The position numbers and the translations under genes were made by a program. The notes under the pieces were generated by a model. It ran no database searches. It was given only the letters and a program-made list of their open reading frames with translations, and was not told the origin of the DNA. A stretch of 64,000 bases of DNA from Candidatus Woesearchaeota archaeon (GTDB lineage: Archaea > Nanobdellota > Nanobdellia > Pacearchaeales > GW2011-AR1): contig CAZNJU010000001.1 of the NCBI GenBank assembly GCA_964573625.1, positions 513,050-577,049 on the forward strand, written 5' to 3'. Of this stretch, positions 862 to 64,000 are shown in pieces. Numbering within the stretch: the stretch's first letter is position 1; every line of letters starts with the position of its first letter.

Positions 862-974
862 GGTGATAGTCGGTAAAACGCTGAACGTGACCGGAGATTA
901 TGAGGAGTATAAAATACCCTTTTTAAATGTTTCGTACAAACCTCTATTCTCTTGTCCTTCAGCAGTTAAACAAA

Positions 975-1049
975 TGGCCCCGACGGGATTTGAACCCGCG
1001 ACACCTGGCTTAAAAGGCCAGTACTCTAACCGGACTGAGCTACGAGGCC
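975..1049 (-). tRNA. tRNA-Lys (anticodon TTT)
   Basis: Reverse complement GGCCTCGTAGCTCAGTCCGGTTAGAGTACTGGCCTTTTAAGCCAGGTGTCGCGGGTTCAAATCCCGTCGGGGCCA folds as a cloverleaf. It has a 7-bp acceptor stem, an anticodon stem CTGGC/GCCAG with loop CTTTTAA (anticodon TTT) and a T-loop TTCAAAT. CCA is not encoded. Confidence 0.85.
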
Positions 1050-1164
1050 GTACAAAACTAGAATCTAGATGATTTTTAAATGCTTTTATCAGCCCGTATG
1101 TGAAAAATTGATAGTTATTTCAAAGGGCAACAATTTTTATAAAGCTCTTACACGCACTGTCAGT

Positions 1165-1584
1165 ATGAGAAAAGGTCTAAGTTATATTCTTTCTACAGGA
1201 ATGCTTGCTTCGACAGCCGGATGTGGAATGTTTGGCGGTAAGAGTGAGATTGCTCATCAATATACCTTTGATACAGATGTAAAGACGAGACGTATAGAAG
1301 TAAGATACGAATCAAAGCAAGCTGAAAATGATATTCAAGTCGGACTCGTATATCGCCACGGTTTAGATGAAGATAAGGGCGCACCTATTACTGATGTAGA
1401 ATCAGACAAGTTTTTCACAGAACATTTTGTCAGAGCAAACACAGATGGTAAATTGTATATTTCAGAAAAGGATGCAGAAAACTTTAGAACAGAATCTTTT
1501 AAGTCATACCAGGAAAAAAGACTTTCTCAGAAAGAATTCAGAAGCATGAATTCAAGATCAAGTGAAGTTATAAGAGATAGATAA
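1165..1584 (+). CDS. putative lipoprotein (signal peptide with lipobox-like LASTAGC)
   Basis: The ORF track lists 1069..1584. An internal Met at 1165 begins MRKGLSYILSTGMLASTAGCG, a signal peptide with a lipobox-like Cys. The rest is hydrophilic. Confidence 0.45.
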   Translation: MRKGLSYILSTGMLASTAGCGMFGGKSEIAHQYTFDTDVKTRRIEVRYESKQAENDIQVGLVYRHGLDEDKGAPITDVESDKFFTEHFVRANTDGKLYISEKDAENFRTESFKSYQEKRLSQKEFRSMNSRSSEVIRDR

Positions 1585-1602
1585 TTTTTATTTTAAACTA
1601 AT

Positions 1603-1917
1603 TTAAGCAAAAGCTTCTTTTGTCTTTTTCTCAATCATCTCAGCGTTCATTGCTCCGGTATGACGATCAACCATTTCGCCATCTTTAAAGAAAATTGTCG
1701 TCGGTATTGACATAACTTCGAACTGACTCGCAAGTTCATATTCTTCATCAACATTTACCTTTGCGAACTTCACACTTGTGGCTTTCTCAGCTGCCTTTTT
1801 GAAATGGGGTTCCATCATTTTACATGGTCCACACCATTCAGCCCAGAAATCAACTACTACATTTCCTTTTGACGTGAATGCTGAGAAGTCCTTTTCTTTT
1901 AACTCTTTTATCGTCAT
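1603..1917 (-). CDS. trxA: thioredoxin
   Basis: 104 aa with a WCGPC active-site motif and a thioredoxin-length fold. Confidence 0.85.
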
Positions 1918-1951
1918 TATGTGAATTATAACGTTTAATTAATAAATGTTT

Positions 1952-5729: not shown

Positions 5730-8591
5730 TTATTCCCCGCAACCACTACGAGAGGTGTTATTACAGCTTGTGCACTTAATTGCACAGTTACCAATTCGCT
5801 TTGCTGTTCCACCACAGATAGGGCAGAGAATACCTTCATTACCAAACTCTTTAATTGTCTTCTGCTGATCAAGAGTTGGCTGTTCCAGTGTCTCTATTTC
5901 GAACTCTATCTTTCCTTTACCTTCGCCAAACTGATTAAGCATAAATTGCGAAACATAGTCGACAATGGAGGATGCACTTCGTATCTTAGGAGATAGCTCA
6001 TCAAGTTCTCCCGCATTTGCGTTGCGTACAAATCCAGCAGGTTCAAATTTATGATGTCTGAACTTGTCGAAGAGCACTTCAACAGGGAGACCATACTGGA
6101 GGTTAAGTGAAACGGACATTGCCCACGCATCCATTAAACCTCGGATAGTCGATCCTTGCTTATGCATAGTTACGAATATTTCTCCAGGTTTACCATTATC
6201 ATACAATCCGATGGTCAAGTAACCTTCATGCCCTGCAATATCAAACTTATGCGTAACTGACTTACGTGTCTGAGGGAGTCGCAACCGTTCTCCTGAACGA
6301 GGGGCCTTTTCTTTCTTGACCATTTCTCCTTCAGTCTTCTGTGTATTAAGTGGCTGGCTTCGCTTACTATTTTCACGATAGATAGCTACTGCTTTCAATC
6401 CCTGTTCCCATCCGAATATGTATGTCTCAGCAATCTCACTTGCAGTAGTATGTTCAGGCATATTTACTGTCTTACTGATTGCTCCAGAGATGAACGGTTG
6501 TGAAACGCCCATCATCTTAATATGGCCTTTGTGATGAATGAAGCGCTTTCCTTTAGCAGCCTTAAAGGCACAGTCAAATACAGCTAAATGTTCGTCTTTC
6601 AAACCAGGCGCACCTTCAATGGTATCATTCTTATCGACAAAAGAAATAATCTCTTGAATAGCTGCCTCATCATATCCCAGATTTTTTAGAGCAAGTGGAA
6701 CTGAACGATTAACTATCTTAAGCATTCCTCCACCTGAAAGCACTTTATACTTGACAAGAGCAATATCCGGTTCAATACCTGTGGTATCACAATCCATCAT
6801 AAACGCAATCGTTCCGGTAGGTGCAAGAACAGTAGCTTGGGAATTTCGATATCCATGTTTCTCTCCAAGATCGACAGCCTCACTCCAACAATCCCATGCA
6901 TCATTAGCAAGGTATCGTAAATCATTAGGCATCTTGTTGACTTCTATTTTCTTCACAGAATCTCGATGCATGCGCATAACTTCAAGCATTGATTCTTTGT
7001 TCTGAGCATATCCTGGGAACGGACCGACTGCACGAGCTATTTCAGCGGACGCTCTGTACGCCTCACCACACATAATCGCGGTAATTGCGGCAGCAACTGC
7101 TCGTCCTTCATCAGAGTCGTACGGCAATCCAATGCTCATAAGCAATGCACCTAAATTAGCATATCCTAGTCCAAGTGGTCGATAGTCATGAGAATTGCGG
7201 GCAATTTTCTGTGTTGGGTAGCTAGAACCATCTACAGCCAGATCCATAGCGATAATGAACGAGCGGACGACTTTCTTGAATCGTTCAACATCAAATTTAC
7301 CTTCATCAGTTCTAAATTTCATCAGATTGATTGAAGCAAGGTTACACGCACTATCATCCAAGAACATATACTCACTACATGGGTTGGACGCGTTAATTCT
7401 TCCTGAAGCCTTACATGTGTGCCATTTATTGATAATAGTATCAAATTGCATTCCAGGATCTCCGCAAATGTGTGTACCTTCAGCTATCTTGTTAAGTACC
7501 TCTCGCGCCTTAAGCGTCTGACATATTTCTTTCGTAGAAACCATGTGCGTTTGCCATTCACCATCGCGTTTTACAGATTCCATAAATTCATCAGGAACTC
7601 GAACTGACATATTACAATTCTGGAAGAAGATACTTCCATAAGCCTCTCCATTCATACCGCCCTGGTACCCTTGCTCAATAAGTGCCCATGCCTTCTTCTC
7701 TTCTTTCTGCTTTGATTCTATAAATTCAACAATATCAGGGTGATCGACGTTCAATATTTCCATCTTAGCAGCACGTCTTGTCTTTCCGCCTGATTTTATA
7801 ATTCCCGCGTAGGCATCGTATCCTCGCATGAAAGATACCGGTCCAGAAGGTCTTCCTCCTCCTGTCAATCGCTCATGAGTGCTACGTAAGGGAGAACGAT
7901 TAGTACCTGTACCTGATCCTGCTTTGAACAAAAGCGCTTCGGCAAGTTGTACCTGAAGAATAGATTCCATATTATCTTCAATACTTTGAATGAAACACGC
8001 AGAACACTGAGGCCTATCATCAGTCTTATCAGTGTGTATTACCGTGTCTGTTGCCGCATCCCATTTCCAGGCAGATACTCCGCCCGCATTACGATCATAC
8101 TCTTGAATGCCTGCATTAAACCAGACAGGTGAATTAAACACACATAACTGATTAAGACAAATAGAAGCAATTTCATCACGTAGAATCGCGCTACGTTCAG
8201 CATCCATATACCCTTGCTTGAGTGCCTGACGTCCAATAAATCGAGCTACACGTCCTACAAGCTGTTCTATTGAGCTTTCACGTTCGCCTTTAGCTTGATT
8301 ACCCCAGAAATATTTACTTGCAACAACTTTGATAGCAAGAGGTGACCAGAATTCGGGTCGTCGGACATTTGGCTGGACGAAAATGACCTTGCCCATGTCA
8401 TCACTCACTTTAACTTCCTCGCTCACCCAGCGGATAGGATTTCCATATATATCAAACTCAAATGGGCTCTTACCTTTCTGTGTAAAGAAATGATCCATGT
8501 TCAGACCAGACATAGGGAGAATATGTTTAGAATCAAATGTTCCACCAGCGGTAATATCGTCCTGTGCTCTTTTTGGTGTTTCCTTTTCCAT
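5730..8591 (-). CDS. nrdJ: ribonucleoside-triphosphate/diphosphate reductase, class II (adenosylcobalamin-dependent)
   Basis: 953 aa with class II RNR length and catalytic-core motifs, and a C-terminal Cys-rich zinc-ribbon tail (CPICGG...CTSCNN). It is translationally coupled to nrdR (shared base at 8591). Confidence 0.85.
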   Translation of the reverse strand: MEKETPKRAQDDITAGGTFDSKHILPMSGLNMDHFFTQKGKSPFEFDIYGNPIRWVSEEVKVSDDMGKVIFVQPNVRRPEFWSPLAIKVVASKYFWGNQAKGERESSIEQLVGRVARFIGRQALKQGYMDAERSAILRDEIASICLNQLCVFNSPVWFNAGIQEYDRNAGGVSAWKWDAATDTVIHTDKTDDRPQCSACFIQSIEDNMESILQVQLAEALLFKAGSGTGTNRSPLRSTHERLTGGGRPSGPVSFMRGYDAYAGIIKSGGKTRRAAKMEILNVDHPDIVEFIESKQKEEKKAWALIEQGYQGGMNGEAYGSIFFQNCNMSVRVPDEFMESVKRDGEWQTHMVSTKEICQTLKAREVLNKIAEGTHICGDPGMQFDTIINKWHTCKASGRINASNPCSEYMFLDDSACNLASINLMKFRTDEGKFDVERFKKVVRSFIIAMDLAVDGSSYPTQKIARNSHDYRPLGLGYANLGALLMSIGLPYDSDEGRAVAAAITAIMCGEAYRASAEIARAVGPFPGYAQNKESMLEVMRMHRDSVKKIEVNKMPNDLRYLANDAWDCWSEAVDLGEKHGYRNSQATVLAPTGTIAFMMDCDTTGIEPDIALVKYKVLSGGGMLKIVNRSVPLALKNLGYDEAAIQEIISFVDKNDTIEGAPGLKDEHLAVFDCAFKAAKGKRFIHHKGHIKMMGVSQPFISGAISKTVNMPEHTTASEIAETYIFGWEQGLKAVAIYRENSKRSQPLNTQKTEGEMVKKEKAPRSGERLRLPQTRKSVTHKFDIAGHEGYLTIGLYDNGKPGEIFVTMHKQGSTIRGLMDAWAMSVSLNLQYGLPVEVLFDKFRHHKFEPAGFVRNANAGELDELSPKIRSASSIVDYVSQFMLNQFGEGKGKIEFEIETLEQPTLDQQKTIKEFGNEGILCPICGGTAKRIGNCAIKCTSCNNTSRSGCGE

Positions 8592-9031
8592 TATCTTAGT
8601 AACTCCTTTATCTCCTTCTTGAAGTCAGATATGTCCGTGAAGTCACGATACACGGATGCAAACCTGATGTATGCTACTTTATCAATCTTTTTAAGTTCAT
8701 TAGATACTAAACCACCTATATCAGAAGTATTAATCTCTTTCCCCTTTTTTCTTATCTTTTCTTCAATGCGTGTTATCATCTTTTCGATTTGTTCATCACT
8801 AACAGGTCGTTTTTCACATGCCTTAACTATTCCTGTTTTGACTTTATTCCTATCAAAAGGTTCTCTGCGACCGTTTTTCTTCACAACTTTGATTTCGCTC
8901 CACTCCACAGTTTCGCGAGTTGAAAATCTCTTACCGCACTTCAGGCATTCACGCCTTCTTCGGGTGATTCCATCAGCGTCTCTCTTATCATTCACCTTTG
9001 TATCGGTGGAAAGACAAAACGGGCAGTGCAT
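8591..9031 (-). CDS. nrdR: transcriptional repressor NrdR
   Basis: 146 aa. The N-terminal zinc ribbon MHCPFCLSTDTKVNDKRDADGITRRRRECLKCGKRFSTRE is followed by an ATP-cone region. It lies upstream of, and overlaps, the RNR gene. Confidence 0.85.
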   Translation of the reverse strand: MHCPFCLSTDTKVNDKRDADGITRRRRECLKCGKRFSTRETVEWSEIKVVKKNGRREPFDRNKVKTGIVKACEKRPVSDEQIEKMITRIEEKIRKKGKEINTSDIGGLVSNELKKIDKVAYIRFASVYRDFTDISDFKKEIKELLR

Positions 9032-9049
9032 GTAACCTCTTTGGAATTA

Positions 9050-9065
9050 CCACAACATCTTGTGT
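9050..9065. promoter_or_regulatory. NrdR box 1 (16-bp palindromic operator)
   Basis: cCACAACATCTTGTGt is an inverted repeat CACAA-N4-TTGTG matching the NrdR-box consensus acaCwAtATaTwGtgt. It lies 19 bp upstream of the nrdR start. Confidence 0.6.
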
Positions 9066-9080
9066 TTCTCTTGCGAAACA

Positions 9081-9096
9081 ACACAACATCTTGTGG
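9081..9096. promoter_or_regulatory. NrdR box 2
   Basis: ACACAACATCTTGTGg is a second near-identical copy. Its centre is 31 bp from box 1 (about three helical turns), as in canonical tandem NrdR operators. Confidence 0.6.
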
Positions 9097-9258
9097 TTAT
9101 TAGTATCTATATTTTCTCTGAGTATTTAAATATTTATGTAATTTTTTGGATAATATTTTTTATTTATAAATAGAAAATAAAATTGTAGGAAATTTTTTTA
9201 TTAAAGAGAACTTTAACACAATCATAACCTTTAATAAAGAAACATTCTCTTAATAGAT

Positions 9259-9516
9259 ATGGCAGATACTCTTACAACACTCGCTGCATCATTTGGCATT
9301 CCGCTCTGGCTTCTAGTGATTGTTTTTGCTTGGACTCTGTTCTGGAAAGGTCTTGCTCTCTGGAAATCAGCACGAAATAATCATTCCGTATGGTTTGTCA
9401 TCCTGCTTGTTGTTCAAACATTCGGTATTGTTGAAATTCTCTACGTGTTTCTCTTCTCGAAAATTTCTTTCAAGGAATTTGAGTCTACCTCTAAAAGTAA
9501 AAAGAGAAAGAGATAA
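9259..9516 (+). CDS. small membrane protein
   Basis: 85 aa with two TM helices and a Lys-rich C-terminus. It is divergent from nrdR across an AT-rich intergenic region. Confidence 0.45.
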   Translation: MADTLTTLAASFGIPLWLLVIVFAWTLFWKGLALWKSARNNHSVWFVILLVVQTFGIVEILYVFLFSKISFKEFESTSKSKKRKR

Positions 9517-9743
9517 TGCAAACTCAATTCAAACGACATCAATCAGTACGTTTACTCGCTGACCCTCGTGAAGAGGACGTAGAATTTTACATAGATCCTC
9601 CTGTACCCATTACAAAGGGAACTATCGGGACGGTAAATATAATCCTTCCAAATGGGCGATACCATATCCGTATTTCTGACAAAAAAGGAAATGAAATAGC
9701 ATACGTTGCTATGGATGAAGAACAACTAGAACCTGTTAATTAG
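9516..9743 (+). CDS. hypothetical protein
   Basis: 75-aa ORF translationally coupled (ATGA-type overlap) to the upstream ORF. Confidence 0.4.
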   Translation: MQTQFKRHQSVRLLADPREEDVEFYIDPPVPITKGTIGTVNIILPNGRYHIRISDKKGNEIAYVAMDEEQLEPVN

Positions 9744-10857
9744 ATTTTGACTTCACAAGTGCCGCTTCCAATGCGCGAGCGAAAACACGTGCATCAGAAG
9801 ATTTGATTTTTTCATCAATGCTTATTCGTATAGATCCTTTCTGAAGTTCTCGCGACATTCTTATCGCCTCAAGAACATGATCTTCCTTTTCTCGACGGGT
9901 TTCACATGCACTTCCTGTCGACACATATATATTTTTATGCGAAAGAAAAGCTACGAGCGTGTTTGCGTCAATCCCATTGAATGAAGCATGTAGTATATGG
10001 GGCATGTGTTCACGTGAACCGTTAATGCTTCCCCCCAGCTTTTCAATTTCTTTTACAAATGAAGCACGTGTTTTTTCAACACCTTTGAACGTTTTACGAG
10101 ATAACTCAATCGCTTTCGCAAAACCGACGATGCTTGCAACATTTTCTGTTCCTCCACGCATTCCTCGTTCTTGACCGCCCCCTACAATCAATGGCTTAAA
10201 GGGCGTATTTTCTTTTACGAACAAAAATCCTACTCCTTTTGGTCCTCCAATTTTATGTGCCGAAGCAGAAAGTAAGTCAATCTGCATGGCTCGCACGTCT
10301 ATCTTTAATTTTCCAAACGTTTGAGCAGCATCAGTATGGAATAAAATTCCTCTTTCTCTACAAAAACGCGCAATTTCAGCAACAGGTTGTATTGTCCCCA
10401 ATACGTTGTTAGCATGCATCACAGAAACAAGAGAAGCTCCGACGATCAAATCAGCAAGTTCATCAACTCTAACAAGGCCTTCTTTTGTCACAGGAATTCG
10501 TTTTATACGCTGGGCTCTCTTTTCAAGTTCATTGCACATCTCATTAATCGAGGCATGTTCAATAGCACTTATCACAATAGGTTTTGCATTATGCACTGAC
10601 GCAGAAAGAGCCCAATTGTTTGCTTCAGTCACACCAGATGTAAAGAAAATCTCCCACGGTTTAGCATTAATCTCTCGAGCAATAGAATTTCGCGCAGACT
10701 CTACTGCTTTTCGCGCATTCTCTCCCAGTAAGTGTGAAGAGCTCGGATTGCCATACGAATCAGTGTAATAAGGCATCATCGCTTTTAGGACTTCCTTTCG
10801 CACAGGAGTCGTAGCGGCAGAGTCAAGATAAAGTGGTTTCATTGCACACTCTCGCAT
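9736..10857 (-). CDS. iscS: cysteine desulfurase (NifS/IscS family, PLP-dependent)
   Basis: 373 aa with the PLP-lysine motif SASAHKIGGPKG and class V aminotransferase architecture. Confidence 0.85.
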   Translation of the reverse strand: MRECAMKPLYLDSAATTPVRKEVLKAMMPYYTDSYGNPSSSHLLGENARKAVESARNSIAREINAKPWEIFFTSGVTEANNWALSASVHNAKPIVISAIEHASINEMCNELEKRAQRIKRIPVTKEGLVRVDELADLIVGASLVSVMHANNVLGTIQPVAEIARFCRERGILFHTDAAQTFGKLKIDVRAMQIDLLSASAHKIGGPKGVGFLFVKENTPFKPLIVGGGQERGMRGGTENVASIVGFAKAIELSRKTFKGVEKTRASFVKEIEKLGGSINGSREHMPHILHASFNGIDANTLVAFLSHKNIYVSTGSACETRREKEDHVLEAIRMSRELQKGSIRISIDEKIKSSDARVFARALEAALVKSKSN

Positions 10858-40645: not shown

Positions 40646-41887
40646 ATGTATCAAGAAAGATATGAAAGAAAGAAGAAACTTCTGCTAGTAGATAAAAAAA
40701 TCAATGAGAAAAATCGTAGAATAATGGGACGATTTCTTGAACATCAAGAATACAGGCTGAAAAGAAGGAACGGATTACCGCAAGTAGATGAAAGAAGCTA
40801 CAAAACACTTGATTATTTCTTAGGACGACTACGAAATCTTAATACGTGGTTCAAAAATAAAGAGTGGTCCTCTCTAAAGAAGGCAGATATCAAACAAGTA
40901 ATTGATGATTTAGAAGATGGAGTTATCAAAACAGCTAAAGGTGAGCGGTTCAAAGACCGCAGTTTGTATTATCAGATGATGCAAGGCAAGCTATTCGCTT
41001 TGATAGGCAAAGATAAAGATGCGCGAGACTTCATCAAAGAACATGAAATTATTGGCCGTAAGAATGATAATCAAGTCCGATTTATCTCTGAAGAAGATTT
41101 CAGGAAAATTGTTGATTGTGCTATAACTCCTGAACAGCGTTGTCTTTTGTGGCTTGCTTTTGATATAGGGGAAAATATCGGTTCTTTGCTCGAACTTGAA
41201 AAGCATGACTTTAAACGACAGACCAATGAAAATACCCGAGAACCGGAGTACCTGGTAATCTTGAGCAAAGATAAGCTAAAAAGAAGTAGGACTCCAAGAA
41301 GCGAGACAACCAACTATACAGAAACCGTGCGGTATCTTGATATCGTCTTAGGAAATCTGAAACCTTCTGAAAAAGTAATTTCTAATCGATTTATGAAAAA
41401 TAAGAACTTAAGTGAACTTCACAATTCAGATAAGCTCTTTAAATTTAGTGAAACTGCTGCCACGCTCTTTCAAAGGAGAGCTGTTGAACGATCTGGAGTC
41501 CGATGCCAGCCAGAAGGTCAGAAAGTCACGTGGAAAGACCTACGTAGCTCTATGAGTTGTGACTTACTTAAGAAAGGGTGGACACGTGACGAAGTAAATG
41601 CTAGACTAGGCCATAAACCAAGTTCTCGTATTATTGATCGTTATATCAATTTTTTAGCTTTAGATCGTAATAGACCTAAGCAAAAGGTGCATGAAAGCAA
41701 CCTTCGTAAACTTGAAAGCGAGCTTGAAAACACTAAAGACTTAAGTAAATTACAAGCTCTTCGTATCGCCAAACAACAAGAAGAGCTAGATCATCTTAGA
41801 ATACTCTACGATAAGAAGTTAGAGGACATTGCGGAAGAGTTGAGCGCTATAAGCAAGAGTGCACAAAAGGTAGCAGTCAAGAATTAG
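40646..41887 (+). CDS. int: tyrosine-type site-specific integrase
   Basis: 413 aa with the C-terminal catalytic signature RLGHKPSSRIIDRYINF (H-x-x-R ... Y) and an N-terminal SAM-like region. Confidence 0.7.
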   Translation: MYQERYERKKKLLLVDKKINEKNRRIMGRFLEHQEYRLKRRNGLPQVDERSYKTLDYFLGRLRNLNTWFKNKEWSSLKKADIKQVIDDLEDGVIKTAKGERFKDRSLYYQMMQGKLFALIGKDKDARDFIKEHEIIGRKNDNQVRFISEEDFRKIVDCAITPEQRCLLWLAFDIGENIGSLLELEKHDFKRQTNENTREPEYLVILSKDKLKRSRTPRSETTNYTETVRYLDIVLGNLKPSEKVISNRFMKNKNLSELHNSDKLFKFSETAATLFQRRAVERSGVRCQPEGQKVTWKDLRSSMSCDLLKKGWTRDEVNARLGHKPSSRIIDRYINFLALDRNRPKQKVHESNLRKLESELENTKDLSKLQALRIAKQQEELDHLRILYDKKLEDIAEELSAISKSAQKVAVKN

Positions 41888-41966: not shown

Positions 41967-42161
41967 TCAATCCCAATCAATAACTTTTTCGTCTTTAATT
42001 TCTCTTATGGATCGTATTATGTCTGATTCTGGAATATCGTCTTCCCCATCTACAATAGCAATAGTACAACCATTCAAATAATCTCCAGTAAATATTTTAT
42101 TGATTAACTTTTTTCCGTATTTATGTTCCAATTCTTTCCTTTTCATATCAACTCTCCACAA
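41967..42161 (-). CDS. small hypothetical protein
   Basis: 64-aa ORF coupled to the HEPN gene (14-bp overlap). Confidence 0.3.
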   Translation of the reverse strand: MWRVDMKRKELEHKYGKKLINKIFTGDYLNGCTIAIVDGEDDIPESDIIRSIREIKDEKVIDWD

Positions 42162-42654
42162 TAACCTTTGTTTCAGAAATTACTTTCTGCGCAAGTTTCA
42201 CTAATTGAGTATAGAGATTGTCATTAAGGGATAAGCTTGTTCCATACTGATACTTTTCGCGTATCTTAACGCTTGTTTCAGAATCATCCGTGATGCCTAA
42301 CGCTGCAATTTTATCAAGTGTATCTTGTGTGAGGTTAATTTTCTTTTCCTCAATAAGAGAGGCAATCAAGGCAAACGTGCATTCTTGATTATGTGATTCA
42401 TAGCCAAACTTGGAAGCAATGGCCAGTAAGCTATGATACATGGCATAAAAAACCGTACTTGCGCTAATATCTGAGAAATTTCCATCTTTCAAATACATAG
42501 TAGCTTTCAAAAAATGCTCTGCCTTTTTCACATGTTCGGTAGATTGCTCTTTATTTGGCTTTATCTTGCGCAGACCTCTATGCATGCTTCCTTCTTTGAG
42601 CTCTTTCTCAGCTTTCCTCAAACACCAATCTAATTTGTTTTTTGCGTGACTCAT
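42148..42654 (-). CDS. HEPN-domain protein (toxin-like)
   Basis: 168 aa, helical, with HEPN-like conserved positions. It overlaps the upstream NTase gene by ATGA. Confidence 0.6.
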   Translation of the reverse strand: MSHAKNKLDWCLRKAEKELKEGSMHRGLRKIKPNKEQSTEHVKKAEHFLKATMYLKDGNFSDISASTVFYAMYHSLLAIASKFGYESHNQECTFALIASLIEEKKINLTQDTLDKIAALGITDDSETSVKIREKYQYGTSLSLNDNLYTQLVKLAQKVISETKVIVES

Positions 42655-43232
42655 GTTAGTACCTCAATTAGCGTATCGTGTCCCGATACAACCAAGCCTT
42701 TGATCGCATTGAGTACAACCTTATCAGGTTTAGCGACGTTCTTCTTTAAATCTTCTTTGGTTTGATAGACCGGATGAATTTTTTTATCGTTTATGGAGTT
42801 AATCTCTTCAATTCCTTTCTTAATCGCATTAAAATTCTTATCATTAGAAACAATGAGGGCATCAATATCGCCTGCCTCTTCATGTTTTTTTAAAACTGAC
42901 CCAAAGAGAATAACCAGTTCAGCATGTTTGATTTTTTTCAATTCGGTGATCCAACGTTTCAGGTACGGATGCGCACTTTCTGCTTCCTTGGCAAGAACAA
43001 ATCGCACATAATTGCGCACATAGTCATTTGAGAGATTAAGCTTGAAAATATGGGCGTTCCCGATCTCTTCAACGCTAAGGATATCTTCTTTCTGAAGCTT
43101 TTGTGCTATTTTCCATGCTCCCATGGGGCTTATATCTAGAAACTTGGCAATCGTGTTCGCATTGTAGTGGACTTCGGGACTTTTCAGTATCGTTGCAATC
43201 ATTCGCATCTCATTATCCGTTACGTTTCTCAT
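42651..43232 (-). CDS. winged-helix + minimal nucleotidyltransferase (MNT, antitoxin-like)
   Basis: The track ORF is 42651..43352. The likely start is the Met at 43232 (MRNVTDNEMRMI...). An N-terminal wHTH (ANTIAKFLDISPMGAWKIAQKL) is followed by the NTase motif LVILFGSVLKKHEEAGDIDALIV. Confidence 0.6.
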   Translation of the reverse strand: MRNVTDNEMRMIATILKSPEVHYNANTIAKFLDISPMGAWKIAQKLQKEDILSVEEIGNAHIFKLNLSNDYVRNYVRFVLAKEAESAHPYLKRWITELKKIKHAELVILFGSVLKKHEEAGDIDALIVSNDKNFNAIKKGIEEINSINDKKIHPVYQTKEDLKKNVAKPDKVVLNAIKGLVVSGHDTLIEVLT

Positions 43233-43360
43233 ATAAACTCCTAGTATATAGTTATAAACTAGCGATATATAAGCTTTATGGTTTACTTGAGTATTCATCT
43301 TTGTATTTATGATTAGAAAAGAATAAATAGACAGGATGAGTAAGAAACGCATAGCGTTTC

Positions 43361-49388: not shown

Positions 49389-50138
49389 ATGGCTAAAGTT
49401 GAAAAGAGCCCAGAAGAGTATGGTTATCGATTTGTTAAGTGCGAACCCCCTATAAGGACCGGAAAAGAAAGTAACGCTCTTGCTCAGCGATGGTTAGAGA
49501 CTCAGGATCCTGCTCTGAAAGAACGGCTGGTGATAGGAAATCGTCGCTTTGTAGGTGCGCTAAGTGCACGATTTACATGCTTTCCGCCTATAATGCGTAG
49601 AGATTTAATCGGGGAAGGGTACGTTGGTCTTGTCAAAGCAATAAACAATTATGACGAAGGAGGATCATTTTCAAGTTATGCATTTAAACACATATTCGGA
49701 GGAATGATGGGGTATCTTGCTGCCAATAGAAGGCTGATTAATATTCCGTATCAATTTATTAAAGAAGCACGAGAGACAGGGAAATCTGCTGAAGAAATTG
49801 AGGATCTCGTTCTTAAGCAGGCTAAGAAAACAGATGAGGCACAATATTTCCTTATTGATGAAGTTAAACATACTCTTAGAGCTCCACAGGACTCAGAGGG
49901 AGAGAGACGCGAGCAGTTAGATTTTCTAAGAGAGGCATTCAGTGTTTTATCCCTAAACAAGAATGAACGATTTGTGATTCAAACCAGATATCTTCAAAAT
50001 CGACACGAGGTTCCTACCTTTAGACAGTTAGGAAAAGCAATGAGATTAACAGGAGGACGAGTACAGCAAATACATGCAAGAGCTCTTCGTAAAATAAGAT
50101 GGTATATGGAGAAAAAAAGATATTGCGAAGCTAGCTAG
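49389..50138 (+). CDS. sigma-70 family-like protein (regions 2 and 4)
   Basis: 249 aa. DLIGEGYVGLVKAINNYDEGGSFSSYAFKHIFGGMMGYLAANRRLINIP aligns to sigma-70 region 2.1-2.4 (DLIQEGNIGLMKAVEKFD...FSTYATWWIRQAI...IRIP). The C-terminal FRQLGKAMRLTGGRVQQIHARALRKIR aligns to the region 4.2 HTH (LEEVG..[20 protein letters not shown]). Confidence 0.65.
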   Translation: MAKVEKSPEEYGYRFVKCEPPIRTGKESNALAQRWLETQDPALKERLVIGNRRFVGALSARFTCFPPIMRRDLIGEGYVGLVKAINNYDEGGSFSSYAFKHIFGGMMGYLAANRRLINIPYQFIKEARETGKSAEEIEDLVLKQAKKTDEAQYFLIDEVKHTLRAPQDSEGERREQLDFLREAFSVLSLNKNERFVIQTRYLQNRHEVPTFRQLGKAMRLTGGRVQQIHARALRKIRWYMEKKRYCEAS

Positions 50139-52814: not shown

Positions 52815-53623
52815 TTCATGGAAATATTTTAGATATGTTTTCTCCAGAAGATTTGACTGATAAGTCTCAGGGTAAAAATGCTAATGAAAGATTAGCTCCC
52901 CGTTATCGACGTAGTTACTCGGCAAGTCCAGTGAATATTCTTATTAGGGCAGAAGAAAGTGATCATTTGAGGAACTTAACTGTAAATCTTAGAGACTTCT
53001 TGCGTGAAAACATGAATATGGCCCAATATGGATTTCTACATAAATTACTCGGCAAGAATTGGAGCGAGAGATTACGCCTTCCCCTAGAATTTAGGGATAT
53101 GGCTTGTGAGGAATTTATGGTTTTTATCAATGAACGCTTGGGGGAAATACAGGAAAAAGTTGAAATCTTACGCGAACATTACGATAATACTGGATTTGAC
53201 GGGCGTTCAGTCCCAATACAGGAATTCATTCAAGTTCCGTTTAATATGGCTTCGAGGGATAAAATTCTCAAAACCTATGAAGACGTTCGCCAGGGAAAGA
53301 CGTCACGATACCCTTATGCTTTCTTCCACCCTAGAAATACAAGAGTGCCAAAGATTCTTACCCGCCATTTAGTCGATGATATCTTAGGTTTACCTCATAC
53401 GGAATCCCTTCCAGACAAGTTAAGACCCTCTCACTTTAGTGAATATCAATTAGGAGGAATGCTAGGGCAGTATTTTCGCGGTAATATCGAAAGAGCATTA
53501 CAACACGCGTACAGTCTAGAAGAATTCCCTCAATTGTATAGAAGAGGATATCAAACAAGGGATGTGCTGCACGAGGTATTCCAAGGCCTCAATAATAAAC
53601 TACGGGAAAAAAAGAATGAATAA
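52811..53623 (+). CDS. hypothetical protein (operon gene 5)
   Basis: 270-aa ORF with an ATGA overlap to the upstream gene. Confidence 0.45.
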   Translation: MIHGNILDMFSPEDLTDKSQGKNANERLAPRYRRSYSASPVNILIRAEESDHLRNLTVNLRDFLRENMNMAQYGFLHKLLGKNWSERLRLPLEFRDMACEEFMVFINERLGEIQEKVEILREHYDNTGFDGRSVPIQEFIQVPFNMASRDKILKTYEDVRQGKTSRYPYAFFHPRNTRVPKILTRHLVDDILGLPHTESLPDKLRPSHFSEYQLGGMLGQYFRGNIERALQHAYSLEEFPQLYRRGYQTRDVLHEVFQGLNNKLREKKNE

Positions 53624-56600
53624 TCAACAACTACTTGCTCGATTTACAATTCCTGAGCTTAAAGCAGCAGCAGACCTAAAGAAATATACAGTTAACTTGA
53701 AGAAAAAATTTAAGAGGGCTGAAAAGAAAAACTCAACAAAGCTTAGAGAAATAGCTACGCTGGAAATTGAAGAAGAAATAAAAAGAAGGAAAAGCGAACC
53801 GGATTATAATCCTTTTTTTGACGATGTATCTACCACAGAGATAATTTCAGAATTAGAAGAAAGACTTCTTAAGCCAGATTCTGTAACGGGTAGACTTAAT
53901 TTGAAGGCAATTCACTCTTTCATCCAAGGGTCATATTATGAAGGCAAAATTTCCCCCAAATTGGAACATCATCACCCTCGCTCAGAATATAGGGCCAAGT
54001 CTAAATCTCTTGTTTCTAGTAATGCAGTAGAAGATGATTTACAAAAAGTGATAGATGAACAGAGAAAAGATGCTCGGTTAGCGAACAATCCTTTTTTAGC
54101 TTATTTTATCGCCAGGGATGTCCAAGGATCAAATATATGGAATAAATTTGGTTTAAGGGGTTTGTTGAGAGAAGTCAAAGAGCGCACAGGATTGGCACCA
54201 GTCTCTTGGAAAGGGGGGGCCATGTCCTATGACGGATTTTTTACGCTTCAAGAGATCTTAACTAAAGACATAAAATCTGGAGAATTCAAGTATTTTGTTC
54301 CTCAAGGAGTTTATTTGATGGCGCAAGACTTACAAAAAAGAGGAACAAAACTTAATGTTTCTGTAACCTCTTTCAATTTAAATTCAAGGAAAAAACTAGC
54401 TGCTCTTTTAGAAGAAGATGAGTCTAAGATAAAAAGAGATTGGAAACCGCACAGATTTGACATGACTTTAGACGCAATAGAAACTTCTCTTGATTTTATG
54501 AGGAGGAAATATCAAGAGAATCCAGATGCATTTTTCGAAAGATACGGCTCTCCTCAAGGAACTAATAATCTAGTTGAGGATATGAAGCCAGAACGCGAAT
54601 TTAAAACTAATCTTAGAAAAGTTCATACTCTGCTTGGAGATGGCGAATCTCTTTCCAAAATGCTTGACATAGAAGATGAGCGATTTAAGACGAAATGGAA
54701 CCCTTCGGTAATCCAGATATCTCCTTCTGAGCTAGAGGTTGTAAGGGATATTTTGCATCGTTCATTGAATGAGGATAAAAATAAATTTTATGCCGTTTAT
54801 GGTTCTGCTTTCGGCACTGTTATTCTCAGTAAGGAGCTTGCAACAAAGGGATTGGATATCAGTCCCGCAAGATTATCTTCTGTTTTGGTTAATACGGATA
54901 AAGCTTCAAGCATTCTTGGAATTAGGGATGATGAATTTGAAAAAAGGTGGAATGTCAAAGAGTTTAGCGATGAATATCCTATTTTCGATACCACAATGAA
55001 AAGACTTAAAGAGGCTTATAATAAAGATCCCGATACATTCTTTTCTCGTTATGGTTGTGATATAGGGGCCTTCAATGTCGCTCAAGACCTCAAAGGGCAA
55101 GGGGGTGAAAAGTCAATTAAAATGCAAGTTGTTTCCAGAATTATAAGGGAAGGACAACTTATTTCACGTATTTTAGACATTAATGATGATCGGTTCAAGA
55201 CTCACTGGCACCCATCACAAATAGTTCCAGATTACGATGATGCCGAAAAAGTATTAGAATTTATGCGCGCCAAGCACAAAAAAAACCCAGATGCGTTTTT
55301 TGGAAGGTATGGTTCTAAACTCGGGCTCTATTATTTGATGAAAGATTTAAGCGACGTACCTGAATTGAGAACGAAACCAGATCAAAATTTAAAAGGTATT
55401 GCTTATTCCGGAGAAAGATTGTCCCGTTTACTTGGAATTAAAGATACAAGATTTTCAAGCGCATGGCATCCTCGAAGTCTAACGCTTAATTCACAGCAAG
55501 TCGATCAAGTTGGAGAATTTCTTAAGGACAAATATGATTCTAATCCTAAATCTTTCTTTAAACGATACGGAGCAGAAGACGGGCTTTTACAACTATCGCG
55601 AGATTTGGAAGAAGAGCAAGGCGTTAGATTATCTTCAAGTAGGTTAGGAAATATACTTATGGATGTCGAGGCTACACAACAGCTAATCGGAATAAATGAC
55701 CCTAATTTTGATAGTAAATGGAATATTCGTTCAATTCAGGTTAAAAACGGTATCCCCGATCAAGTTGGAGAATTTCTGAGAACTCAGTATGATCAAGATC
55801 CAACACGCTTCTTTGTGCGCTATGGTGGAAAGACTGGCCAAGTTTTAATGTTAGAAGATCTTCGTAAAACTGGCATTAAAATCCCCCTTATGCAATTAGG
55901 GTCACTAATTGGAAAGTCAAGTCTTGTTTCTAGATTAACTGGCATCCCCGAGTCTGAATTTGAAGGACGTTGGAGAAGCAGGCATGTTGGAATGAAAAGA
56001 ACTCATATTTCAAGAATTACAGATATATTAACAAATGCTTATCACGAAGATCCAGAGTTGTTTTTCGAAAGATACGGTGGGAAAGAAGGAATAGTCAACT
56101 TAGCCGAGCGGCTCAAAGAAGACGATGTTCATCCCAATTTACACTTCATATCAAATCTCATTGGAGATCCAGAGACCGTACAGGAGTTAATGAAGGTTGA
56201 AGATGATAGATTCCTTGGTGAATGGGCTCCTAGGAAGGTCAGTATATCTTCGCGACAATTAAGACCTACTATTGATTTCTTACGACGTTCCTATTTCGCT
56301 GACAGTAAAAGATTCTTTGATCGATACGGGTCTAGGGCAGGAATCTATAATTTGGCAATTGATTTAAATGAAGGGGGCATGTTGGCAAGTGGAGATATGG
56401 AGAGAATATACGATTTAGTTGCTCGGCCTTCCATTCAAGAAGTTTTAGGTATTCGCGATCCGAAATTTGGTGAAAAGTGGAATCCTGCTAACATTCCTCT
56501 CAATCTCAATGAGTTCCGTGCTATTTCTACTCATCTTAAGGAGCAATTCGATAAAAATCCAGATACCTTTTTCGATTATTATAGAAAGCCTTTAAGATCG

Positions 56601-57440
56601 ATTATATTAGGTAAGGAAGCTGAAGCCTTAGGTATCAATGAGAATCCTCCTGTTTTTTCAGTAATTTTAAATGATGGTAAATTTGTTGGAGAATTAGTGG
56701 GATCTGCTGATAAACGATTTGCAGACACCTGGCCTCGTAAAGCTTATGTAATGCTACAGGGAGCTTATCCGACCATGAAGAATATGGAGCAATCTATTGG
56801 CCAAGGATTAGAAAGGATGGCTGAAAGTTGCAGTTTACCTTCTATGGGTAGTCCATTAGGTAAAGATGAAAGAGAATATCTCGCTTTACGATATGGTCTA
56901 CGCATGGTTAATGAGAACACAGCACACCATGTTGTTGAATTGTATGCAGGTGCCAAACAAAAAGCAATTAAGAAAAATATTAAAGAAATACTTACACAAG
57001 ACGCCAAAGATATGAGAGAGTTATCTTCTATTAAAAACTTCAAAGAAGTTTCAGAATTTGGTGATGAGGCATTTACTAATTTAGCAGGACATTTGCTTTA
57101 TAGTTTTGACCCGTCTATTAGAGCAGCTGCAGGACATAAAATTCTTGAACTATATACTCCTACCTTTCAACGAATAATTGCTAATCGCAACATTCCAGAT
57201 ATCTCAAAAGGATATGATACGTTTAGTAAATACTGTGAAAACTTTGATATGTATGCTATTAAGTTTGGAGGGCTAAAGGAGAGAAAGCAGGTATGCCCCG
57301 TACCCTTGCCTGGTAGAGTATACAGTATTATTCAATCTATTGGAAGTGGTCGCTACTATGATTGGAGCGATAATGTGATGAGATCTCTAGATGTTAACGA
57401 TGATAAAGAAGGAGGTTATCTTCACGAAATAATTAGTTAA
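53616..57440 (+). CDS. giant tandem-repeat protein (about ten ~85-aa repeats + unique C-terminal domain)
   Basis: The track ORF is 53562..57440 (1292 aa). The likely start is the Met at 53616 (MNNQQLL...), an ATGAATAA overlap like gene 2. Repeats recur with the core pattern [LI]G[IV]xDxxFxxxWxP ...(~40 aa)... NPDxFFxRYGxxxG. Confidence 0.6.
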   Translation: MNNQQLLARFTIPELKAAADLKKYTVNLKKKFKRAEKKNSTKLREIATLEIEEEIKRRKSEPDYNPFFDDVSTTEIISELEERLLKPDSVTGRLNLKAIHSFIQGSYYEGKISPKLEHHHPRSEYRAKSKSLVSSNAVEDDLQKVIDEQRKDARLANNPFLAYFIARDVQGSNIWNKFGLRGLLREVKERTGLAPVSWKGGAMSYDGFFTLQEILTKDIKSGEFKYFVPQGVYLMAQDLQKRGTKLNVSVTSFNLNSRKKLAALLEEDESKIKRDWKPHRFDMTLDAIETSLDFMRRKYQENPDAFFERYGSPQGTNNLVEDMKPEREFKTNLRKVHTLLGDGESLSKMLDIEDERFKTKWNPSVIQISPSELEVVRDILHRSLNEDKNKFYAVYGSAFGTVILSKELATKGLDISPARLSSVLVNTDKASSILGIRDDEFEKRWNVKEFSDEYPIFDTTMKRLKEAYNKDPDTFFSRYGCDIGAFNVAQDLKGQGGEKSIKMQVVSRIIREGQLISRILDINDDRFKTHWHPSQIVPDYDDAEKVLEFMRAKHKKNPDAFFGRYGSKLGLYYLMKDLSDVPELRTKPDQNLKGIAYSGERLSRLLGIKDTRFSSAWHPRSLTLNSQQVDQVGEFLKDKYDSNPKSFFKRYGAEDGLLQLSRDLEEEQGVRLSSSRLGNILMDVEATQQLIGINDPNFDSKWNIRSIQVKNGIPDQVGEFLRTQYDQDPTRFFVRYGGKTGQVLMLEDLRKTGIKIPLMQLGSLIGKSSLVSRLTGIPESEFEGRWRSRHVGMKRTHISRITDILTNAYHEDPELFFERYGGKEGIVNLAERLKEDDVHPNLHFISNLIGDPETVQELMKVEDDRFLGEWAPRKVSISSRQLRPTIDFLRRSYFADSKRFFDRYGSRAGIYNLAIDLNEGGMLASGDMERIYDLVARPSIQEVLGIRDPKFGEKWNPANIPLNLNEFRAISTHLKEQFDKNPDTFFDYYRKPLRSIILGKEAEALGINENPPVFSVILNDGKFVGELVGSADKRFADTWPRKAYVMLQGAYPTMKNMEQSIGQGLERMAESCSLPSMGSPLGKDEREYLALRYGLRMVNENTAHHVVELYAGAKQKAIKKNIKEILTQDAKDMRELSSIKNFKEVSEFGDEAFTNLAGHLLYSFDPSIRAAAGHKILELYTPTFQRIIANRNIPDISKGYDTFSKYCENFDMYAIKFGGLKERKQVCPVPLPGRVYSIIQSIGSGRYYDWSDNVMRSLDVNDDKEGGYLHEIIS
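54430..56950 (+). repeat. intragenic tandem repeat array (~255-bp period, ~10 copies, diverged)
   Basis: The protein-level repeats (e.g. LDIEDERFKTKWNP, LGIRDDEFEKRWN, LDINDDRFKTHWHP, LGIKDTRFSSAWHP, IGINDPNFDSKWN, TGIPESEFEGRWR, MKVEDDRFLGEWAP, LGIRDPKFGEKWNP, VGSADKRFADTWP) map at ~250-260-bp spacing. They are diverged at the DNA level. Confidence 0.6.
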
Positions 57441-61868: not shown

Positions 61869-63941
61869 TTAGTCTTTTTTGAATAAGTGCGTGATTGCAT
61901 CTGCCACACTCCTTTTCGTATAGGTTATACCTAATTCATTATAGTACGGAGATAAGTTCCTATCTGTTACCACGAAAAACCAGTTTTTACTATAACCTTT
62001 GTTAAGATTTCTTATTTTCTCCATTAATTTTTTCCTGTCTTTACTGTAAACTTTACCTGTTTCAACTTCAATTGCGTATTGCTGGCCGCCGGCTTCAAAA
62101 ACAATGTCTGGTTTTACCGTTTCATATAAAGATATCTTGTTTGTGAAATTCTTTAGATATTCTACTAACTCATACGTAAGAAAGCAATGACTCTCAGACT
62201 CATTTCTTCGCGGTTTGATCAGGTAACGTGCTTTTTTATTATTAAGATCAAAGAATGTTCTTTCTTGATATCCCTTTGAGCGCAAGTATTTGATTTCGTC
62301 CAGATTAAGAGAGCTGACTACATGGTGGCGTCTTGACTCATCAATAGCGATGTTCACTTTTCGTTGAATGGCTTTCTTTGTTTCGGTAGGTTGTCGCAAG
62401 AGCTCATCAGGTTTGGTAGTAATGTATTCATGTTCTTCATCTGATGCCACAATACGCAGCTCTGAATGTTCATCATCCATAAGCAGAATGCCTTCACCTA
62501 CGGCAGCAGTAAGCAAAAATGCCCGTTCAGTCTCGCTCAAGGAGAATGTTTCTTTGATGTTTCTAATAACGGCTGGTTTTTGTCTTAGAAGAATGGTATA
62601 AGAACTATTGGCTAAGACAGATTTACCTGCTTCGGTTCCCAACATGCCTTCGACTTCCTGATTAATCAAAAACAGTGCTAAATTGAATTTTCTACACGTT
62701 TTAACGATCTCAAATATGTACGAAGCGTCTTCAGCCCGACTAAGGAGCGACCACGCTTCATCAATGACGAGAAACTTACGCTCTAACGTGCTTTTCATTT
62801 TCATATATACATAATCTAATACGAGAAACATCATAACAGGCTTCACTTGCTTAGGCATATTGCCGATATCAAAGGAAACGAGCGGATTGTCAAAATTGAT
62901 GTTAGTATGCGTATTGAGAAAAGAGAAAACACCTGTAGTGTACAGTGAAAGACGATTAATGAGACTGCGTATGGTGGGTTTTTCGATAGTCGTTGCTTTT
63001 CGTTCTAAGGATTCTAAGGAATACAGTATATCTTCCATAATCGGCGGCTCATTATTCCAGCTTTCAGGATCATTAACAAAGATGCCTTTCTTTTCATACG
63101 CCGTTGTTAGAGCACGATCGATAAACGTCTTCTGGGGTTCAGTAAGCTCACCAAGCATGAGCGGCATCAAATCCATCAAGGCAAGACGTTTTTCAGGATA
63201 TTCGTGACCCATTAAGTCCAGAGGATTGATAATAGTCTCAGAAGTTCGACTCAAATCAATACGTTGCCCTTTAAACTGCTTTACCAGCGCGTTATACTCT
63301 CCTTGCGGATCAATAACCATTACTTTTGTACCATTCAACAGATGCCGAGCAATCATGAGCTTTGACAGATAGCTTTTACCGGAGCCAGAGCTAGCCAAAC
63401 ACAGACCGTTCGGATTACTGAGGGAAAAAATGTCTTTAATAATCGGAATGTTATTTTTGTTAAGGCCGAACCAAATACCGGATAGATCTGCTGATAAGAA
63501 GGAAGAGGTAAAGGGAAAGAACGCCGATAACGCGTTCGTAGGCACGTTTCTACGCATTTTAAGATGGTTCATGGCTAATGGAGCACAGGACTTAAGAGCT
63601 TGTAACATTCTGAATGAAGGACGTCTCGGAATAATCAGAAGCGAATTCAGTTCTGATTCTACTTTTCGTGTTAGAAGATCCAATTCTGCTTTCGTTGTGG
63701 CTCTGCAATTAATATAGAGACTTACATTGAAGAGCTTCTCTACACCTTTCTGAAGGTTGGTAAGCACTCCTTTGGTGTCTTTGTATTTGATTTCTAAACT
63801 CGGATTAAGTATTCCTTTGGATTTAGCAGAATACAAATCTGCACGTTGTTTTTGAAGTTCTTTGTTAATATCCACCATCATCGTTTCAATATCATATGGC
63901 TCAATATGAATCGAAAGATCAAAATTACCTGAGCTACTCAC
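61869..63941 (-). CDS. VirB4/TraC/CedB-like ATPase fused to a C-terminal PD-(D/E)xK nuclease-like domain
   Basis: 690 aa with Walker A LASSGSGKSY, Walker B KFLVIDEAWSLL, and the VirB4-type C-terminal motif QEVEGML. The last ~110 aa carry PDIVFE...AIEVETGK (D...E.K nuclease-like). The start codon appears to be GTG. Confidence 0.55.
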   Translation of the reverse strand: MSSSGNFDLSIHIEPYDIETMMVDINKELQKQRADLYSAKSKGILNPSLEIKYKDTKGVLTNLQKGVEKLFNVSLYINCRATTKAELDLLTRKVESELNSLLIIPRRPSFRMLQALKSCAPLAMNHLKMRRNVPTNALSAFFPFTSSFLSADLSGIWFGLNKNNIPIIKDIFSLSNPNGLCLASSGSGKSYLSKLMIARHLLNGTKVMVIDPQGEYNALVKQFKGQRIDLSRTSETIINPLDLMGHEYPEKRLALMDLMPLMLGELTEPQKTFIDRALTTAYEKKGIFVNDPESWNNEPPIMEDILYSLESLERKATTIEKPTIRSLINRLSLYTTGVFSFLNTHTNINFDNPLVSFDIGNMPKQVKPVMMFLVLDYVYMKMKSTLERKFLVIDEAWSLLSRAEDASYIFEIVKTCRKFNLALFLINQEVEGMLGTEAGKSVLANSSYTILLRQKPAVIRNIKETFSLSETERAFLLTAAVGEGILLMDDEHSELRIVASDEEHEYITTKPDELLRQPTETKKAIQRKVNIAIDESRRHHVVSSLNLDEIKYLRSKGYQERTFFDLNNKKARYLIKPRRNESESHCFLTYELVEYLKNFTNKISLYETVKPDIVFEAGGQQYAIEVETGKVYSKDRKKLMEKIRNLNKGYSKNWFFVVTDRNLSPYYNELGITYTKRSVADAITHLFKKD

Positions 63942-64000
63942 GATCTTATCGAGAAATCCTGCTTCTACGGTTCGCGGATAGCCATAGGCGACAATCGTTC

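Follow-up and report, generated by a model that had tools for sequence, protein, structure and literature searches.

Conjugation-type secretion machines of monoderm bacteria, of mating-pair-formation type FATA (MPF-FATA), include VirB4/TraC ATPases such as the CD1110 family of Clostridioides integrative and conjugative elements (ICEs) and the VirB4 of the Mycoplasma ICE (Mbov_0397 family). In archaea, the Ced and Ted systems (CedA, CedA1, CedA2, CedB; TedC pilus) are built from few components, namely a VirB4-like ATPase, a VirB2-like pilin and a polytopic membrane protein, and have no relaxase (PMC9905601). In the conjugative elements of archaea, a relaxase has yet to be identified, and the generation of the DNA substrate of Ced and Ted, in particular of single-stranded DNA (ssDNA), is a stated open question (PMC9905601, PMC12857230). 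Here we analyzed a gene at the end of a 64,000-nucleotide stretch of DNA (the window) from Candidatus Woesearchaeota archaeon (assembly GCA_964573625.1, contig CAZNJU010000001.1, positions 513,050 to 577,049 of the forward strand), and show that its product is the ATPase that powers a minimal apparatus of conjugation type (MPF-FATA-like), a type IV secretion system (T4SS) or mating pilus, in a DPANN archaeon of the Woese-/Pacearchaeota group.

This protein is like the monoderm ATPases in its Walker A and B motifs and its PrgI/VirB3-like hairpin; in relatives, the gene is also accompanied by operon partners for a pilin of VirB2 type and a VirB6-like protein. It differs from them in its archaeal (DPANN) host and in an extra C-terminal module of 183 aa with a nuclease fold; in addition, no coupling protein or relaxase recurs near the relatives' genes. 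The DPANN systems and Ced/Ted are both archaeal, have no recognised relaxase and share the minimal component set, whereas the DPANN clusters lie in integrase- and tRNA-flanked elements and the Ced/Ted ATPases have not been reported with a nuclease domain. What is new is a T4SS ATPase of known kind that bears a new PD-(D/E)xK family, and our search of the literature turned up no report of a VirB4 fused to a nuclease. The nearest published case is that of the nanohaloarchaeal SPEARE proteins, whose architecture is different and whose claimed restriction endonuclease domain is disputed (PMC10266531).

The protein consists of five parts. A membrane hairpin of VirB3/PrgI type comes first; the VirB4 ATPase follows, and a flexible linker then leads to a small alpha/beta subdomain and, last, to the PD-(D/E)xK core. 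Our confidence in this anatomy is high. The features that lie in the window, all on the minus strand, are the following:

62421-63998, minus strand: the part of the VirB4-type ATPase that the window covers (residues 274-799 of 982), from NCBIfam conju_CD1110, Pfam P-loop_TraG and identity to P0042
63369-63398, minus strand: Walker A, LASSGSGKSY (from sequence; G478, G480, K481 and S482 invariant in 56 full-length relatives)
62742-62777, minus strand: Walker B, KFLVIDEAWSLL (from sequence; D686, E687, A688 and W689 invariant in the same 56 relatives)
62334-62420, minus strand: variable, charged, flexible linker between ATPase and C-terminal module (residues ~800-828), from pLDDT, alignments and paralogue identity
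62217-62327, minus strand: small beta-alpha-beta-beta subdomain, winged-helix-like (C-terminal module residues 32-68), from the AlphaFold (AF2) model and conservation
61872-62204, minus strand: PD-(D/E)xK nuclease-fold core (C-terminal module residues 73-183)
62199-62201, minus strand: E74, putative active site
62187-62189, minus strand: H78, putative active site
62106-62108, minus strand: D105, putative active site
62067-62069, minus strand: E118, putative active site
62061-62063, minus strand: E120, putative active site
62016-62018, minus strand: K135, putative active site
62052-62114, minus strand: string KPDIVFEAGGQQYAIEVETGK, located in the sequence
61962-61985, minus strand: beta4 strand, NWFFVVTD
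61869-61871, minus strand: stop codon (TAA), read from the sequence

The initial annotation had proposed a VirB4-type ATPase on the basis of Walker A and B motifs, and profile searches bore this out. The window fragment matched the VirB4-like CD1110 family of NCBIfam (conju_CD1110) with E 7e-87 and the Pfam family P-loop_TraG with E 1e-24; the latter, at 84.6-87 bits for a cut-off of 25.8, covers residues 466-770 of the 982-aa NCBI protein P0042. When P0042 was compared to conju_CD1110 (NF045971), the match (E 1e-93) reached 315 bits, slightly below the equivalog cut-off of 325 bits, and the protein is therefore a member of the family, but not the CD1110 equivalog. NF045975 aligned residues 5-799 of P0042 almost end to end (E 1e-90), and VirB4 homology extends to residue ~799. 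At the N-terminus, the PrgI profile, which describes a VirB3-like transmembrane hairpin, matched residues 5-78 with 28.8 bits (cut-off 27). We rejected the possibility of a CedB, CedD or TedB orthologue, as the CedD profile NF053655 gave 43-44 bits versus a cut-off of 600 and the best matches are bacterial monoderm VirB4 families. PADLOC and PHROGs matched only the ATPase part, to HerA/mad8-like models.

The open reading frame (ORF) is uninterrupted on the minus strand and closes with the stop codon at 61869-61871; both Walker motifs and the string KPDIVFEAGGQQYAIEVETGK, all quoted in the initial annotation, were located within it, and the ORF is genuine. The description of a complete 690-aa protein with a GTG start did not hold. 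The frame stays open from the supposed GTG start (63941), which is preceded by TIVAYGYPRTVEAGFLDKIV, to the last full codon at 63998, the curated VirB4 profile aligns the fragment only from model position ~218 of 752 onward, and P0042, which is 100% identical across all 709 window codons, adds 273 N-terminal residues. The GTG start is thus an artefact of the window edge. The full protein has 982 aa, and the window holds the 3' 72% of its gene, the 273 N-terminal residues, with the VirB3/PrgI-like hairpin and the beginning of the N-terminal domain, lying off the window beyond base 64000. A MYG1-like gene neighbours the VirB4 gene, and a 20-kb Logan contig, the only one found to carry this MYG1-like gene, likewise ends within VirB4.

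That the ATPase is apparently fused to a nuclease-like domain had also been suggested, together with a check for a frameshift, and this check confirmed a genuine fusion. A locus scan with one genome per species yielded 44 loci, all in DPANN archaea or on contigs that are likely mis-binned DPANN sequence, and the relatives come from Woese-, Pace- or Nanoarchaeota metagenome-assembled genomes (MAGs). In 34 of the 44, VirB4 and the module are encoded in a single stop-to-stop ORF, with full lengths of ~990-1070 aa. At least 120 protein clusters carry the fusion, and the best 120 in a collection of 5.8 billion proteins span 94-100% of the query; they originate from NCBI, JGI, ENA and Logan and are labelled only 'ATP-binding protein', 'DUF87', 'TraC' or 'VirB4'. 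A HMMER search over 1.84 billion representatives identified 711 members of the module family at E <= 1e-3, counted as representatives at the 50% identity level, of which 225 lie below 1e-30. An assembly or frameshift error that created the fusion, or a motif matched by chance, could be entertained in that the window edge truncates the protein and no curated family covers the module; since the collinear fusion is found in at least 120 protein clusters and 34 independent MAG loci, the module family has 711 representatives and the structure model is confident, such an artefact has a negligible probability. An artefactual fusion is excluded by the single-ORF loci and the 94-100% query coverage, and a chance match is ruled out because the same residues are invariant across the family.

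The linker that joins the two parts is predicted to be disordered, with a predicted local distance difference test (pLDDT) score <50 at residues 801-816 of the full-length model; it varies in length and is poorly conserved in alignments, and identity between paralogues falls sharply at residue ~800. For the C-terminal 183 aa of the window's protein alone, no above-threshold match was found in Pfam or NCBIfam, PADLOC and PHROGs searches gave no family, and phmmer and profile searches of PDB sequences with the module returned nothing meaningful. The AF2 model of the module has a pLDDT of 91 alone and of ~85 inside the full-length model, and shows a core of alpha-beta-beta-beta-alpha-beta topology after the small subdomain. 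The latter, modelled with pLDDT 94-98, follows the consensus L-x-x-x-E-[IV]-x-Y-L-x-x-x-G-Y and has conserved residues L46, G50, Y51 and Y66.

Structural neighbours of the module are nearly all restriction-fold nucleases, at modest scores. The best of these are VC1899/Can2, VRR-NUC, NgoMIV, Hjc/Hje, PspGI, OkrAI and BamHI, and EndoMS is also among the Foldseek neighbours; Foldseek E-values are weak (4e-3 and above), with OkrAI at rank 8 and BamHI at rank 49. Among viral models (BFVD), a 'competence protein' is the top structural match, and restriction enzymes and VRR-NUC come next. In individual Pfam scans of 31 family members, the recurring fold-informative families, all below threshold, were all PD-(D/E)xK: CoiA_nuc in 7 members (best E 1.5e-3), AHJR-like in 6 (best E 1.4e-4), Replic_Relax (PF13814) in 3 (E >= 0.0095), as well as HSDR_N_2, Hjc and ERCC4. 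The model, its neighbours and the convergent sub-threshold matches agree with the nuclease fold that the initial annotation had proposed for the C-terminal region, and the assignment of the module to the PD-(D/E)xK fold is sound. The domain is larger than the ~110 residues initially estimated, since linker, small subdomain and core together give a module of ~150-180 residues.

The module displays a conserved pattern E...H...D-x12-E-x-E...K, in which D105-x12-E118-x-E120 corresponds to D904, E917 and E919 of the full protein. In the model, E74 and H78 lie on alpha1, D105 at the start of beta2, E118 and E120 on beta3 and K135 on alpha2. Conservation in an alignment of 71 sequences is 100% for D105, E118 and E120, 96% for E74 and H78, and 97% for K135; in 56 full-length proteins, the equivalent E873, H877, D904, E917, E919 and K934 are listed as invariant, and D...ExE is kept by all 145 representative matches examined, whose modules are 34-54% identical to that of the window. 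Of the D-x(n)-E-x-K arrangement read initially, the Asp and the first Glu stand, but the beta3 motif is E-x-E and not E-x-K, and the Lys of ETGK that follows ExE is present in just 59% of the 71 aligned sequences. The canonical (D/E)xK is hence replaced on beta3 by ExE, a variant with precedents in the TraX relaxase family and in BamHI, a PD-(D/E)xK enzyme in which a Glu replaces the catalytic Lys, with a site formed by E77, D94, E111 and E113. The E-D-ExE site of the module is probably catalytic, and from the conserved residues we infer nuclease activity. BamHI and OkrAI resemble the module in fold and ExE site; their identity to it is just 15-18%, with non-significant E-values, and for the module there is no evidence of sequence-specific double-strand cleavage.

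The module was further compared to the MOBC relaxases (TraX of pAD1/pTEF1, MobC of CloDF13; PF13814). TraX and MobC are PD-(D/E)xK enzymes that form no covalent intermediate, and TraX has an N-terminal winged helix (PMC12857230). Both they and the module have a restriction-fold catalytic domain after a (winged-)helix DNA-binding part, and both are associated with T4SSs and with ribbon-helix-helix (RHH) auxiliary proteins, RHH proteins being the usual relaxosome auxiliaries (PMC12857230). In the hhalign register, the order D...E-x-E...K...V-T is the same: D152, E170, E172 and K176 are invariant in the TraX family and K188, V204 and T205 nearly so, and the module has D105, E118, E120, K135, V151 and T152 in this register. 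Membership of the MOBC family was rejected, the hhalign match having E 0.014 (probability 3%) and, with larger alignments, E 0.045, and PF13814 being reached by 3 of 31 members at E >= 0.0095; comparison of a single TraX sequence to the module gave no match. MOBC relaxases may accordingly serve as a functional analogue and not as a family assignment. A further difference is that TraX is a free protein that acts with a VirD4-type coupling protein, while the module is fused to VirB4 and no coupling protein was seen.

Two other systems are of interest for comparison. CoiA is an atypical PD-(D/E)xK ssDNA endonuclease that acts on imported DNA (bioRxiv 10.1101/2024.02.06.579203), and its nuclease domain (PF06054) is the commonest sub-threshold Pfam match (7 of 31 members, best E 0.0015, all below threshold), but CoiA, a bacterial protein, is soluble, has a Zn finger and is unlinked to T4SSs. 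HerA-NurA and the viral terminases are alike in coupling a hexameric FtsK/HerA-class ATPase to a nuclease that processes the DNA being moved (PMC3326311, PMC9905601); their nucleases are RNase H-like, and their roles lie in repair or packaging and not in membrane transport.

Directly upstream of the VirB4-nuclease gene, 24 related loci encode a pilin of VirB2 type and a polytopic protein resembling VirB6, a membrane partner of the kind that the initial annotation had advised looking for. The operon in these relatives has the order Zn-ribbon protein (~71 aa), VirB2-like pilin (PF18895 at 3.5e-14, TrbC at 3e-7), small Cys-rich protein, VirB6-like polytopic protein (270 aa) and, last, VirB4-nuclease. 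The third gene codes for a small Cys-rich protein that is secreted or transmembrane, or for a larger version of ~450 aa. Adjoining genes, usually of divergent orientation, encode a protein of ~65 aa, RHH-like as judged by eye from its sequence, as well as one or two DNA methyltransferases (N6_N4, MT-A70); a methyltransferase of either kind lies beside the operon in ~12 of the ~19 relatives whose upstream flank is long enough. Near the operon, Fic genes are frequent as well. Two loci (L018 and L033) have the order tRNA-Asp, tyrosine integrase, RHH/methyltransferase and T4SS, which is an ICE-like layout. Neither a relaxase-like family nor a second large P-loop ATPase (coupling protein) recurred in at least three loci; as the profile scans covered a part of the neighbours, rare or very divergent relaxases could have escaped.

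Individual loci show further variation. In six of one clade (L006, L008, L009, L012, L014 and L018), the VirB4 gene is divided in two, with one ORF (~260 aa) encoding the VirB3-like hairpin and the beginning of the N-domain and the other (~770 aa) the remainder and the nuclease; the split recurs across MAGs of different studies and resembles the division of VirB4 N-domain parts between CedB and CedD (PMC11868833). A single 11-kb contig (L002) carries two inverted copies of the T4SS operon, at 351-2872 (-) and 5850-10597 (+), one of them truncated, with two methyltransferase genes and two RHH genes in between. Giant secreted or surface proteins of 500-1180 aa (families F23, F26 and F27) are encoded immediately downstream of VirB4 on the opposite strand in L009, L014 and L018, and may be adhesin cargo of the element. 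Reverse-transcriptase-like genes (family F15, 150-410 aa, motifs identified by eye) recur near the module loci L003, L006, L011, L037 and L042.

In several relatives, the DNA just 5' of the Zn-ribbon/pilin operon contains perfect palindromes of 18-24 bp. One such sequence, CCATTTAGTCGACTAAATGG, is identical at L006 5778-5797, L009 5790-5809 and L018 5795-5814, and others were found in the upstream regions of L002 (ATAAAAATGTACATTTTTAT) and L026 (TTGTGTACACAATTGTGTACACAA). The nuclease modules of L006, L009 and L018 are mutually just 51-55% identical despite the identical palindrome, and we rejected the palindrome as an oriT-like (origin of transfer) target of the nuclease, as the conserved 20-bp sequence does not co-vary with the module. 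The upstream palindromes are probably operators.

The module is also found in other architectures. Stand-alone module genes coding for 150-240 aa lie immediately 3' of a tyrosine integrase gene in L024, L030, L023 and L038, and in two of these the integrase-module pair adjoins a tRNA gene (L024, tRNA-Gly; L030, tRNA-Arg). In P0015, the module is joined to the integrase C-terminus through a Zn-ribbon. A membrane-anchored form has two N-terminal transmembrane helices and a charged, Lys/Glu-rich coiled-coil linker ahead of the module (P0205, P0210, P0218, P0238, P0246, P0254, P0292 and P0310). The acidic site is retained in the stand-alone, integrase-fused and membrane-anchored forms. Through these forms, the module is repeatedly associated with DNA transactions of mobile elements and with the membrane's cytoplasmic side. 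Within the window, there is no second copy of the module.

Module and motor diverge at different rates. Between the window and its relatives, identity is 60-78% in the VirB4 part and 34-54% in the module, and among the relatives the values are 64-90% and 44-67%, respectively. The same genome, on the same 760,348-bp contig, encodes outside the window a paralogue (P0044) whose motor is 80-100% identical to that of P0042 and whose module is 30-60% identical; the first 80 residues and residues 281-360 are ~100% identical, and there is a sharp break at residue ~800. This fast divergence is what one would expect of a specificity-determining or swappable module.

Since the gene lies in a T4SS and mobile-element context, has an invariant acidic site and has no recurring relaxase or coupling protein near it, we propose that the protein acts as a DNA endonuclease, tethered to the membrane, and that it processes DNA next to the secretion motor, a reading to which we give an even chance. 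VirB4 would assemble as a hexamer at the cytoplasmic base of the channel, so that up to six metal-dependent endonuclease modules would sit on flexible tethers at the channel entrance, where they would nick or cut the DNA moved by the machine. The modules would supply the DNA processing and the substrate coupling that in bacteria are the tasks of the relaxase and the VirD4 coupling protein. Stand-alone modules encoded after integrases would allow smaller, tRNA-flanked integrated elements to process DNA of their own and to make use of the same machine. Transfer could be in the direction of export, as in conjugation, or of import, as in Ced. A more specific version of the proposal would see the module as the relaxase-equivalent of archaeal conjugation, a MOBC-like nicking enzyme fused to VirB4 that replaces both relaxase and coupling protein; the stand-alone copies would then mark the first recognisable archaeal integrative mobilizable elements, carried along by that machine, and recognition of DNA specific to each element would be encoded in the divergence of the module, also that between the paired paralogous systems of one 760-kb genome. 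We advance this version tentatively and consider it rather unlikely.

Several observations weigh against DNA processing at the motor. We infer the nuclease activity, the substrate and the direction of transfer alike, and the canonical Lys of (D/E)xK is absent from the module. The partner genes of the operon are known from the loci of relatives; the genes upstream of the window's own VirB4-nuclease gene lie beyond the window edge. A search for an oriT or target site upstream of the relatives' operons gave no candidate, and the profile-profile match to the TraX family is too weak to demonstrate a specific MOBC relationship. The DNA methyltransferases that frequently adjoin the operon suit a restriction-like role equally well. 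To our knowledge, VirB4 is not the known DNA receptor in bacterial model systems.

The same methyltransferases lead to a different reading, in which the tethered nuclease degrades incoming DNA, either as a restriction-like barrier from which methylation protects the cell's own DNA or by turning host DNA into a source of nucleotides for a metabolically reduced epibiont. The closest folds include type II restriction enzymes, the ExE site is like that of BamHI and OkrAI, and divergence is much faster in the module than in the motor, a trait of specificity domains. The Ced systems of archaea are DNA importers (PMC9905601), and the T4SSs of epibiotic Patescibacteria are needed for growth on the host (PMC12857230). 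This reading, however, leaves the integrase-adjacent stand-alone copies and the integrase fusion unexplained, the module matches none of the PADLOC defence families, and no DNA methyltransferase is present in the visible part of the window. Orphan methyltransferases, moreover, are common on conjugative elements. We consider degradation of incoming DNA unlikely.

It is also conceivable that the restriction-fold domain cleaves nothing and only recognises or holds DNA or a partner, coupling it to VirB4; the missing canonical Lys and the winged-helix-like subdomain ahead of the core would both suit such an adaptor. Four acidic or His positions and a Lys are nevertheless invariant at 34-54% overall identity, a pattern typical of a metal-binding catalytic site, whereas inactive homologues such as ERCC1 have lost their active-site residues, and we regard a non-catalytic role as improbable. 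The sharp identity break between paralogues of one genome (VirB4 80-100%, module 30-60%) recalls polymorphic toxins, of which nuclease C-termini are typical, and would fit a conserved delivery protein whose fast-diversifying C-terminal nuclease acts against competitors or competing elements. Such an effector is highly improbable, given that the C-termini are all of one family, with a shared active site, and not of interchangeable toxin families, that VirB4 is a cytoplasmic motor and not a secreted substrate, and that no conserved small 'immunity' gene follows the VirB4-nuclease gene in relatives.

The remainder of the window also codes for a threonyl-tRNA synthetase with an archaea-specific editing domain, a class II ribonucleotide reductase and a glutamyl-tRNA synthetase, in keeping with an archaeal host. 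It contains an island of ~20 kb, made up mostly of ORFan genes, in which the following features were recorded:

40646-41887, plus strand: 413-aa protein with a weak tyrosine-recombinase match (PF00589, 21.7 bits, under cut-off); it may mark one end of the island
42148-43352, minus strand: HEPN gene (168 aa) beside a nucleotidyltransferase gene with an N-terminal winged helix-turn-helix-like part (233 aa)
49389-50138, plus strand: 249-aa protein that exceeds the Pfam cut-offs for bacterial Sigma-70 region 2 (26.2 bits) and region 4 (33 bits)

Of the F9 integrases found with the module in other loci, none was matched by the recombinase-like protein in BLASTP (E 1e-3). The HEPN and nucleotidyltransferase genes look like a HEPN-MNT toxin-antitoxin pair, with HEPN slightly under the Pfam cut-off. 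The sigma-factor-like gene lies on an archaeal chromosome and is odd for a DPANN archaeon. One further gene, at 53562-57440 on the plus strand, codes for a protein of 1292 aa with ~12 repeats of ~95 aa ('...FF.RYG...' units); it has no Pfam match and is also present on a Logan contig (L001).

The VirB4-nuclease family adds to the known proteins an unannotated domain family with ~700 representatives at 50% identity, and offers a concrete, testable candidate for how archaeal transfer DNA is cut and handed to the channel. Its C-terminal module could be the missing DNA-processing enzyme of archaeal conjugation, and the finding bears on how genome-reduced, epibiotic archaea exchange and acquire DNA.

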